Below the pieces are notes generated by a model that had not been told where the DNA came from, did no database searches, and saw only the letters and a program-made list of their open reading frames with translations. The position numbers were made by a program, and so were the translations under genes. From Candidatus Hodarchaeota archaeon (GTDB lineage Archaea > Asgardarchaeota > Heimdallarchaeia > Hodarchaeales > Hodarchaeaceae), in assembly GCA_016839815.1 (NCBI GenBank), contig JAEOTM010000083.1, positions 1-25,763 on the forward strand: DNA of 25,763 nucleotides, written 5' to 3'. Shown here one piece after another: positions 2,163 through 24,690 of the stretch (within the stretch, counting starts at the first letter, position 1; every line of letters begins with the position of its first letter).

Positions 2163-2176
2163 GAAAGGTTTTTAAC
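2163..2176 (+). promoter_or_regulatory. Putative BRE/TATA core promoter of the dsrE-tusA-hdrA/qmo block
   Basis: GAAAGG-TTTTTAAC about 120 nt upstream of dsrE; near-identical GAAGG-TTTTTAAT upstream of tusA2 (8431-8443). Confidence 0.5.
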
Positions 2177-2204
2177 TCAATGTAAATAACCCAAGGTTGA
2201 CTAC
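2168..2204 (+). promoter_or_regulatory. Triple SurR-box-like operator array
   Basis: GTTtttAAC-tcaat-GTAaatAAC-ccaag-GTTgacTAC: three GTT-n3-AAC-like units with 5-nt spacers. Confidence 0.7.
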
Positions 2205-8430: not shown

Positions 8431-8444
8431 GAAGGTTTTTAATT
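8431..8444 (+). promoter_or_regulatory. Putative BRE/TATA promoter of tusA2-yedE
   Basis: GAAGG-TTTTTAATT, similar to 2163-2176. Confidence 0.5.
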
Positions 8445-8457
8445 AAATAGCTTTATT

Positions 8458-8494
8458 GTTGTTAACTAGACGTAAATAACTTTGAGTTATTAGC
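8458..8494 (+). promoter_or_regulatory. Triple SurR-box-like operator array
   Basis: GTTgttAAC-tagac-GTAaatAAC-tttga-GTTattAGC; same architecture and identical middle unit as 2168-2204. Confidence 0.72.
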
Positions 8495-8622
8495 AGATAG
8501 CAAGTACGCACACGTTTCACTCTATATAGCCAATAGGCACAGAATTCATCTGTTAATTTCTCTATGAAATATTTATGTTTTGTATATTTCAAAAACTTAA
8601 CTCAATAAAGGATAGACAAAAT

Positions 8623-10106: not shown

Positions 10107-10134
10107 GAGAGGTATAATCCTCTCCTCTTTTTTT
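10107..10134 (+). terminator. Hairpin plus T7 terminator after yedE
   Basis: GAGAGG tataat CCTCTC ctc TTTTTTT. Confidence 0.6.
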
Positions 10135-10303
10135 ATCTCAAAGCGTGATGCATTGCTTTTCTCGATATACCGTTCGAGGAGGAGACATCTGAAATAAAAA
10201 TGATATTTTCTGATTGATTGATCCAAAATCTCTGATCTAGGAACATTTATATCATCATTCAGGCAGCTAACAGACACAAAAGAAATTCGATAAGTTGAGT
10301 GCA

Positions 10304-11071
10304 ATGGATAAATATGATTGTAGTTTGAGTCATCCGATTTATGATCTTCTATCTAATAAAACCAGGCTAGAAATATTAAGATTAATTGCCTGTGAAAAAA
10401 ACTATGGTAGCAGAATTGCTTCTATTTTAAAAATATCTGCCCCTGCAATTCATAGGCATTTGAAAATTCTTTCTGGAAAGGTGGAAAGTGAGGATATTGG
10501 TGAGTTTGCGTTTCTAAAATCTTCTGAGACCACACGAGAAAGTTATTCTGGACACAAAGGTGCAGAGGCCACTATGTATGAGATAGGGTCCAAATTATTT
10601 CTTACATTTGCAATCTATCCGAATTTCGTACACTCACACGCATTTCTCACTCCAGTTAAAGATGAAATAGCAATTACGGATCAAAAGACTCAATCCCAAA
10701 AGAAAAAAGAAAAAACTAGTAAATCAGAAGACAAAGCGGAAATTAAACGTAATTTTACAAATATATATAATAAGATCCAAGAAAAAAATGATCAGATCAA
10801 TAAGCTTGAACAAGAAATCCTTCAGATCTTTTTAGAGAAAGATGAGCTAATGAAACAATTGGATGAAGCAATTTTGGAAAAAGATCATTTGCTTGATTAT
10901 GATGAACGAGTTAGTATACGTACATTAGCATGTCAGGGGCCTAATTGCATTCCAAATCTGCCTGAACTTCTAAAACAAGATGAGGAACTGGTTAAAAAGA
11001 TTCTTCGAAATCTTAAAAGCCAAAATTGGTTTGATATTCTCGATGAAAAGATAAACTACAAGACTTCCTGA
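10304..11071 (+). CDS. ArsR-superfamily regulator with SurR-like architecture (wHTH - coiled coil - wHTH)
   Basis: N-terminal LLSNKTRLEILRLIACEKNY...ISAPAIHRHLKIL, then YEI...FAIYP, heptad-rich coil, C-terminal helix-turn-helix-like segment; 255 aa. Confidence 0.8.
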   Translation: MDKYDCSLSHPIYDLLSNKTRLEILRLIACEKNYGSRIASILKISAPAIHRHLKILSGKVESEDIGEFAFLKSSETTRESYSGHKGAEATMYEIGSKLFLTFAIYPNFVHSHAFLTPVKDEIAITDQKTQSQKKKEKTSKSEDKAEIKRNFTNIYNKIQEKNDQINKLEQEILQIFLEKDELMKQLDEAILEKDHLLDYDERVSIRTLACQGPNCIPNLPELLKQDEELVKKILRNLKSQNWFDILDEKINYKTS

Positions 11072-17407: not shown

Positions 17408-17581
17408 AGTATTTATCCTCTTGTATGCTAAATCTTAATTAAGGTTAATTTTCTTCAAAAAAATAGAAATGTTTGAAGTTAGATGGCCAATCTAATGAAA
17501 AACGTTTTAAAGTGATAATTATAATTTTTCCGTAAACAATAGTGAGGTACGAAGATTAGATATAAAGCAAATACATTGTCG

Positions 17582-24611: not shown

Positions 24612-24690
24612 CTTATATACTATTTTATTAACGATTGTTGATTGTTTTTAGCCTACTTATAGCCACTTTACAGCAAAAAGGGTTTTAAAT
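24612..24690. promoter_or_regulatory. Divergent TATA-like promoters for the hdrC2 operon and gcvH
   Basis: Minus strand TATATAAG (24619-24612); plus strand AAAAAGGG-TTTTAAAT (24675-24690). Confidence 0.45.

Follow-up and report, generated by a model that had tools for sequence, protein, structure and literature searches.

The window analyzed here, i.e., the whole stretch of 25,763 nucleotides from contig JAEOTM010000083.1 of the Candidatus Hodarchaeota archaeon assembly GCA_016839815.1, carries the gene of a transcriptional regulator (P0001) at positions 10304..11071 of the + strand. The encoded ArsR-type protein of 255 amino acids belongs to the SurR/Phr superfamily and to a family of Asgard archaea which is marked by four cysteines. 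The open reading frame is intact, opens with ATG and closes with TAA, and the ATG at 10304 suits the N-termini of the homologues (MDxFxCSL) better than the TTG at 10295. In its reduced form, SurR activates hydrogenase genes and represses genes of the elemental sulfur (S0) response, and it is inactivated by oxidation of its CxxC motif. To our knowledge, this textbook sulfur and hydrogen switch of archaea has been characterized only in Thermococcales. The protein described here is a new Asgard variant of the SurR type, not orthologous to SurR itself, for which an operator and a regulon are predicted. Full-text literature searches returned no paper naming it or linking SurR-like regulators to Asgard archaea.

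Upstream of the regulator gene, the + strand contains, in this order, dsrE, a gene for an MvhD-like protein, two genes for HdrA/Qmo-like flavoproteins, a gene encoding 102 amino acids, a gene for a QmoC-like membrane iron-sulfur protein, tusA, and yeeE. Convergent with the regulator gene, hdrB, hdrC, hdrA::mvhD, mvhA, and mvhG lie on the − strand. Beyond mvhG, hycI, a second MvhD gene, and a second Hdr-like set follow on the − strand, and then a gcvH-like gene on the + strand. A hairpin with a T-run is located after yeeE (10107..10135, + strand) and is conserved in contig C189 of the same assembly and in the loci L005 and L016. The regulator is therefore probably transcribed from its own promoter, for which TTTATATC at 10247-10254 is a candidate TATA box.

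The N-terminal part of the regulator (residues 18-56) matches the Pfam family HTH_5 (PF01022) with an E-value of 9e-7 and 29.1 bits, above the gathering score of 22. Against the NCBIfam SurR model NF047699, it scores 21.8 bits over residues 12-233 at a cut-off of 250 bits, and this model has no match at its cut-off anywhere in the 4.24-Mb assembly. Judged by these scores, the regulator is not an orthologue of SurR. The NCBIfam models for TsoR, SdpR, and metalloregulators were rejected as well, every score lying far under the cut-off.

P. furiosus SurR (PF0095) is the best relative of solved structure in every sequence search. The match of the single sequence by phmmer against the PDB was weak (E-value 0.004) and limited to the N-terminus, so that family profiles were needed. 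A profile of 23 close homologues matched SurR with an E-value of 8e-6. The profile of 38 family members reached 2e-9, with residues 12-233 aligned to SurR residues 5-203, and 8e-6 for Phr, and a profile widened to more distant relatives gave 6e-22 for SurR and 1e-21 for Phr. The identity between the regulator and SurR is only 17-19%. The likeness exceeds chance and represents homology over the full length. An initial annotation of the window had pointed to an N-terminal resemblance to P. furiosus SurR, quoting SurR strings which proved to be those of the PDB 2qlz sequence. The significant homology to PF0095 was found, as the best hit both by profile and by fold, and it extends along the entire protein according to the profile, to Foldseek, and to VIA-align.

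The AlphaFold2 (AF2) model built from 38 sequences has a predicted local distance difference test (pLDDT) score of 83.8 and a predicted template modeling (TM) score of 0.77. It comprises an N-terminal winged helix-turn-helix (HTH) domain with a long beta wing (residues 11-117; 10334..10654, + strand), which is also evident from the HTH_5 match and the alignment, a disordered linker (residues 120-140), a long helix (residues 142-192; 10727..10879, + strand), and a three-helix winged-helix-like domain at the C-terminus (residues 199-239; 10898..11020, + strand) with the motif C-Q-G-P-N-C. The recognition helix SAPAIHRHLKIL lies within the N-terminal domain, whose motifs IACExNYG, SYSGxKGAEAT, and PNF are invariant in the family, and the C-terminal domain aligns to that of SurR. 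Foldseek placed SurR chains on top (E-value 6e-6, TM-score 0.50-0.63, about 235 columns). VIA-align, which is independent of Foldseek, ranked SurR (2qlz) first of 48,161 chains with a Z-score of 12.5 and a root-mean-square deviation of 3.9 Å over 193 residues. The runner-up was Phr with a Z-score of 9.2 for the N-terminal domain only, and single-domain ArsR proteins followed with about 6-7. The layout of two winged helices joined by a coil, as proposed by the initial annotation, is thus recovered in the model and is the same architecture as in SurR. A first AF2 model from 23 sequences (pLDDT 65.8), for which Foldseek gave no match at an E-value of ≤0.001, was superseded.

A prediction with two copies of the regulator scored 0.82, the best of three controls being 0.00, with a contact agreement between runs of at least 91% and a partner pLDDT of at least 77. 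Of the proteins solved as pairs of the same chain, 20 of 30 reached the score mark used, as did 1 of 23 solved as single chains, counts which are only rough because our own alignment was used. In the predicted dimer, the long helices form an antiparallel coiled coil centered near residue 168 (contacts 168-168, 161-179, and 158-182), and strand 99-103 pairs across the subunits. Since SurR was itself solved as a homodimer, the passing score may reflect likeness only. Within the explanation favored below, the regulator is taken as a transcription factor of the SurR/Phr branch of ArsR-type regulators which is predicted to act as a homodimer.

The regulator has cysteines at residues 6, 30, 210, and 215 and none besides. 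Cys6 in the N-terminal arm (codon at 10319..10321, + strand) is present in at least 90% of the 23 close homologues. Cys30 (codon at 10391..10393, + strand) is invariant in the homologue alignment and equals the first cysteine of the SurR CxxC motif in the alignments to 2qlz. HMMER pairs LIACEKNYG of the regulator with HLTCMECYF of SurR, so that the regulator reads C30-E-K-N33, where Asn33 replaces the second cysteine, and asparagine is found at this position in all close homologues. Cys210 and Cys215 (Cx4C; 10931..10948, + strand), located where the first two helices of the C-terminal domain meet, are invariant as well. Among the family members, 27 with identities down to about 35% carry exactly these four cysteines and no other. 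The initial annotation was therefore right in reading a single retained cysteine of the CxxC motif, and the extra cysteines noted there at position 6 and 210/215 turned out to be a conserved, relocated set.

Diverged paralogues have lost the cysteines in mixed combinations (6+215, 30+210, 6+210, and 6+30), and three of these proteins have none. A more distant subfamily from metagenome-assembled genomes (MAGs) of Hodarchaeales and Thorarchaeota retains the Cx4C pair alone, without Cys30. In the two-copy model, residues 29-31 and 209-214 lie within the predicted subunit interface. BigR, HlyU, CzrA, and SmtB each align about 87 residues in VIA-align, spanning the model from residue 1 to about 217, which suggests, from alignment ranges alone, that helix 199-217 with Cys210/215 may sit at the alpha5 position of single-domain ArsR sensors.

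With its full-length similarity, Cys6/30/210/215, and the motifs IACExNYG, SYSGxKGAEAT, and PNF, the regulator belongs to the four-cysteine family, which is undescribed and confined to one Asgard class. A word-indexed search for homologues yielded 23 proteins, and an exhaustive search over 1.84 billion representatives yielded 44 clusters. All named close members come from Asgard MAGs, and the genomes of the same genus are labeled 'Candidatus Hodarchaeota' and in one case 'Hermodarchaeota', in line with the earlier expectation of a lineage other than Thermococcales. The family is present in only 13 of 400 sampled genomes of the phylum, all 13 in this one class, and in 5 of the 22 genomes of its own genus. 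An in-frame TGA in a homologue from genome G045, considered as a selenocysteine codon at a cysteine position, is an ordinary stop codon.

Two predicted operator arrays of 37 bp, each consisting of three GTTnnTAAC-like units with a period of 14 bp, are located on the + strand of the window. Array 1 (2168..2204) lies upstream of the dsrE-mvhD-like/Qmo-like operon and array 2 (8458..8494) upstream of tusA-yeeE, and both agree with each other at 23 of 37 positions. Arrays were scored on both strands as three GTTNNTAAC units with 14-bp period, using thresholds of ≥17/21 for triple arrays and ≥13/14 for two units. At the triple threshold, the 4.24-Mb assembly contains four sites, namely the two in the window and two on contig C189 (16597 and 16792), which lie in a divergent promoter region beside a paralogous regulator. 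The two-unit pattern recovers the identical four sites. At ≥12/14, the other two-unit sites lie mostly inside coding sequence. Two further intergenic two-unit sites, upstream of a subtilase gene and an alpha/beta-hydrolase gene, were judged to be chance matches. The plain motif GTTNNNAAC shows no enrichment in the window, with 7 copies against an expectation of 7.8, and only the phased arrays are significant. Their GTT-n3-AAC core and 14-bp period are those of the long SurR motif GTTn3AACn5GTT. The suggestion that the regulator adjoins its likely targets has thus gained support at the level of promoters, as SurR-box-like arrays stand in front of the adjoining operons. In the hdrC2-gcvH divergent intergenic region (24624-24652), the units TTTATTAAC and GTTTTTAGC occur 20 bp apart, and since this spacing is wrong for the arrays, they are probably due to chance.

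The arrays are conserved beyond the window. Array 2 is kept except for three positions in three other loci, in which the flanking DNA is not conserved and the regulators are only about 53% identical to that of the window. The arrays also stay with their promoters despite the inversion of the Qmo-like operon in C189 and L005. In related loci, a spacer of 5 nt gave 11 and 12 sites, and any other spacer from 0 to 12 nt gave 0-3. No triple array was found in 23 Mb of five same-genus genomes that lack the regulator. Outside the genus, the triple pattern with up to 3 mismatches was absent from the genomes G071, G042, and G010 and found once in G045, away from regulators. It is too strict there, hence the two-unit pattern with spacer controls was used. 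In distant family members without a tusA neighbor (L002, L006, and L020), phased units closely precede the regulator gene itself, and further such units in distant loci lie between tusA and the regulator gene and in front of a small PF02579 gene. In L019 (9343-9853), L021 (10718-11276), and L006 (9346-9882), a phased GTTAWTAAC array precedes a regulator-adjacent gene of this family (dinitrogenase FeMo-cofactor-binding-like), which may be a conserved member of the regulon. In two further loci (L004:9640-9900 and L015:6410-6670), the BRE/TATA promoter block with array (see below) is kept between the QmoC-like gene and the regulator gene. It is followed by what looks like a remnant of tusA that is interrupted by in-frame stops, and yeeE is missing. 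Here, the promoter appears to have outlived its genes.

The linkage of the regulator to sulfur genes is conserved as well. It adjoins tusA, dsrE, or Qmo-like genes in at least five families, and the hdr-mvh genes are next to it only in loci of its own genus. In other loci of this genus, the regulator gene directly follows the QmoC-like gene and no hydrogenase is nearby; yeeE is present in 3 of the 5 regulator-bearing genomes. Contig C189 carries a second, diverged island (10249-33659) with Qmo-like genes, dsrE, tusA, yeeE, regulator, hdrBCA-mvhAG, hycI, the second Hdr set, and gcvH. Its divergence is uneven, with identities of 81-88% for the Qmo-like proteins, 86-88% for MvhAG, and about 55% for regulator (54%) and YeeE. 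The contamination of the assembly bin is 7.8%, so that this island could stem from a co-binned relative and not be a true paralogue. In other families of the class, two family members bracket a tusA-mvhD-like/Qmo-like-dsrE operon, with a four-cysteine copy divergent from tusA and a copy without Cys30, Cys210, and Cys215 as the last gene. Such pairs lie in L019 (1203-1970 and 8238-9014) and L021 (3008-3742 and 9968-10714), where the cysteine-poor copy is located just after a DsrE-family gene.

The first unit of array 1 overlaps the sequence CGAAA-GG-TTTTTAA at 2162-2175, which resembles a transcription factor B recognition element (BRE) with TATA box, and the TATA-like TTTTTAA at 8436-8442 precedes the start of array 2 by 15 bp. 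Both sulfur promoters share the conserved block CGAAA/AGAAG-GG-TTTTTAA, which we take to fit the archaeal BRE/TATA consensus. With a transcription start about 25 nt downstream of the TATA center, both arrays would cover the initiation region. SurR, which was solved as a homodimer and is switched by cysteine oxidation, binds GTTn3AAC and GTTn3AACn5GTT and represses when bound downstream of the TATA box (PMC12162507). As the arrays extend over the region from BRE/TATA to the start site, i.e., in the repressor geometry of SurR, the DNA-bound form of the regulator most likely represses, a mode of action to which we give moderate confidence. A second conserved block (CTATTTAC...TAAT...AAAAA) is found at 8540-8600 of the window and in orthologous loci, about 55 nt upstream of the tusA start, where a leader segment of varying length precedes it. 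The block is either a further promoter or an element of the leader. An Rfam scan of the window, including the leaders and this block, gave no match.

The favored explanation for the locus, with a probability of roughly 0.55, is a dedicated SurR-like regulator which controls the neighboring sulfur operons via the arrays and senses through its four cysteines. Its targets would be the sulfur-trafficking genes of the dsrE-mvhD-like/Qmo-like operon and of the tusA-yeeE operon. It would recognize the GTTnnTAAC units, which resemble the SurR-box palindrome GTT-n3-AAC, in threes with 14-bp period and would repress both operons when bound to DNA. Taken by itself, the action of a SurR-like factor on the adjacent sulfur operons through the arrays is quite probable. 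The sensor would consist of Cys30 at the SurR redox site, Cys6 in the N-terminal arm, and Cys210/Cys215 in the C-terminal domain, which is predicted to pack against the N-terminal domain. Sulfane sulfur or an oxidant would join the thiols by di- or polysulfide bridges, and this bridging would shift the DNA-binding domains, so that the regulator would leave its operators and the sulfur operons would be expressed. By analogy with characterized sensors, we put sensing of thiol state or sulfane sulfur by the four cysteines at about even odds. Homology, fold, conservation, synteny, and the restriction of the arrays to these promoters across the genome are observations, whereas binding of the regulator to the arrays, repression, and the thiol chemistry are inferred. 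A switch of this type is favored because SurR is switched at the position of Cys30, because sensing of sulfane sulfur by ArsR-type proteins relies on two cysteines, and because the predicted targets are sulfur carriers. The ArsR-type repressors SqrR, BigR, SoxR, and sHdrR sense sulfane sulfur by a two-cysteine bridge, and SoxR and sHdrR control sulfur-oxidation genes (PMC12423496).

Several points weigh against this explanation. No array was found in the 218 nt upstream of the regulator gene of the window. The assignment of BRE and TATA boxes, made by consensus only, would imply long leaders of about 95 and 157 nt. If the CTATTTAC block is the real promoter, the arrays would lie upstream of it, in the geometry of an activator. 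The mixed loss of cysteines in diverged paralogues is at odds with two fixed disulfide pairs and would also suit a metal site with four ligands. Furthermore, the arrays could be the binding sites of a different factor that accompanies the operon. A stand-alone QmoB-like orthologue occurs, among the 22 genomes of the genus, in exactly the 5 that carry the regulator, but related genomes are not independent, so that this co-occurrence overstates the evidence and is descriptive only.

The main rival to the thiol switch concerns the sensor and leaves the DNA targets unchanged. The four cysteines would ligate a metal or an iron-sulfur (Fe-S) cluster, either where the N- and C-terminal domains meet or between the subunits, for sensing of redox, iron-sulfur status, or oxygen, or they would form a structural zinc site. 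We consider this unlikely, even if it accounts well for exactly four invariant cysteines from three distant parts of the chain, for the two cysteine-bearing segments in the predicted interface, and for the all-or-none conservation, as mixed loss in diverged paralogues, three of them free of cysteine, is expected if such a site works only as a whole. Cys30, at the end of the helix before the HTH, is presumably also where classical ArsR/SmtB metal sites lie. However, the spacing of the cysteines is not canonical for cluster binding, SurR and the analogues SqrR, BigR, SoxR, and sHdrR use thiol chemistry, and the distant subfamily with the Cx4C motif alone suggests that this pair can act by itself. 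In a more speculative and still slightly more doubtful variant, the four cysteines converge at the domain or subunit junction as one sensory site of a kind undescribed for ArsR/SurR, either an Fe-S cluster or an inter-domain polysulfide lock, and form with the cysteine-less paralogue a two-regulator circuit of sulfur trafficking. If this were true, the polysulfide lock would be loaded directly by the TusA/DsrE carriers which the regulator controls, and the two-regulator circuit would operate in an Asgard class including Hodarchaeota-labeled MAGs.

The other two alternatives concern the targets. The initial annotation had proposed a sulfur/H2 switch encoded between its likely targets, in which the reduced regulator switches on the adjacent mvh-hdr hydrogenase operon and keeps the sulfur genes repressed. 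Its sulfur half agrees with the arrays at the flanking sulfur promoters, and the homology to SurR as well as the position of the regulator gene between tusA-yeeE and hdrBCA-mvhAG in the window, C189, and L005 speak for the whole. The hydrogenase half gained no support from cis elements. No array is present in the mvhG promoter of the window, C189, or L005, nor any site at the array thresholds, so that a mirror-image control of H2 genes is unsupported, although regulation by other means would be compatible with the absent site. Upstream of mvhG, the window has a TTAAC-n5-GTAAA fragment, but it is not conserved in C189 and L005. The three mvhG promoters share a different near-palindrome, TAGATTGGCCATCTA, which has two exact copies in the genome and is probably the site of another regulator of the hydrogenase/Hdr operon. 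It is found at 17480-17494 (− strand) of the window, at C189:26031, and upstream of mvhG in L005, and a related TAGATGGCCAAT lies in the dsrE leader at about 2243-2254. In other loci of the genus and in other families, the regulator stands by tusA/dsrE/Qmo-like genes and the hydrogenase is not adjacent, and we regard the dual switch as improbable. Least probable of all, with only a slim chance, is a generic ArsR regulator with a target and a signal unrelated to the arrays and the sulfur operons, such as a Phr-like stress regulator or a sensor of metal(loid)s, the arrays being bound by another factor. Phr as second-best relative by structure and sequence, the match of ArsR-family models to the N-terminal domain, and the lack of an array in front of the window gene copy would be in accordance with it. 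Against it stand the phased units that directly precede family members even in the absence of a neighboring tusA or Qmo-like gene, the vicinity of every high-scoring array of the genome to a regulator copy, the agreement of the SurR-box-type motif with the homology of the recognition helix, and the tusA/dsrE synteny across families.

The regulator is a distant relative of SurR over its full length, found in Asgard archaea, in which the putative cysteine sensor is rebuilt and the predicted operators show a recognizably SurR-like grammar. The predicted regulon of two promoters with 37-bp arrays is compact and testable, and it opens a way into the gene regulation and the sulfur metabolism of uncultured Asgard archaea. 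Moreover, the family represents a natural experiment on the relocation of reactive cysteines in redox sensors and offers defined DNA and protein reagents for in vitro work.

Among the known systems, the ArsR/SmtB metal(loid) sensors share the HTH_5 domain above the cut-off, whereas the regulator adds a coiled coil and a C-terminal domain and has a conserved synteny without metal-resistance genes. Phr (PF1790; PDB 2p4w) shares the N-terminal ArsR-type winged helix and the long dimerizing helix, and its VIA-align match covers the first 98 aligned residues. However, it has no counterpart of the cysteine-bearing C-terminal domain, no conserved cysteines, and another genomic context. The repressors SqrR, BigR, HlyU, SoxR, and sHdrR are freed from DNA by a sulfur bridge between two conserved cysteines (PMC12423496), and regulons of sulfane-sulfur ArsR proteins include genes for sulfur carriers and Hdr-like proteins. 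They are single-domain proteins of about 100-125 amino acids with two cysteines (alpha2 and alpha5), whereas the regulator has 255 amino acids, three domains, and four cysteines. The structural match of BigR and HlyU up to residue 217 or so is one of ranges and implies no residue equivalence of the cysteines.

The closest comparison is that with SurR (PF0095; PDB 2qlz and 2quf). Both proteins have a three-domain layout of ArsR-type winged helix, long helix, and second winged helix, and the regulator is predicted to be a homodimer like SurR. Cys30 takes the place of the first redox cysteine of SurR, both are linked to sulfur-response genes, and the GTT-n3-AAC-like units with 14-bp period that are associated with the regulator, and are predicted to be bound by it, correspond to those of SurR. 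In contrast to SurR, the regulator has no CxxC motif but four invariant cysteines in three regions, a longer beta wing, and a disordered linker rich in Lys and Glu, and it belongs to an Asgard lineage instead of Thermococcales. Finally, its predicted targets are tusA, dsrE, Qmo-like genes, and yeeE instead of mbs, nsr, and pdo or hydrogenases.

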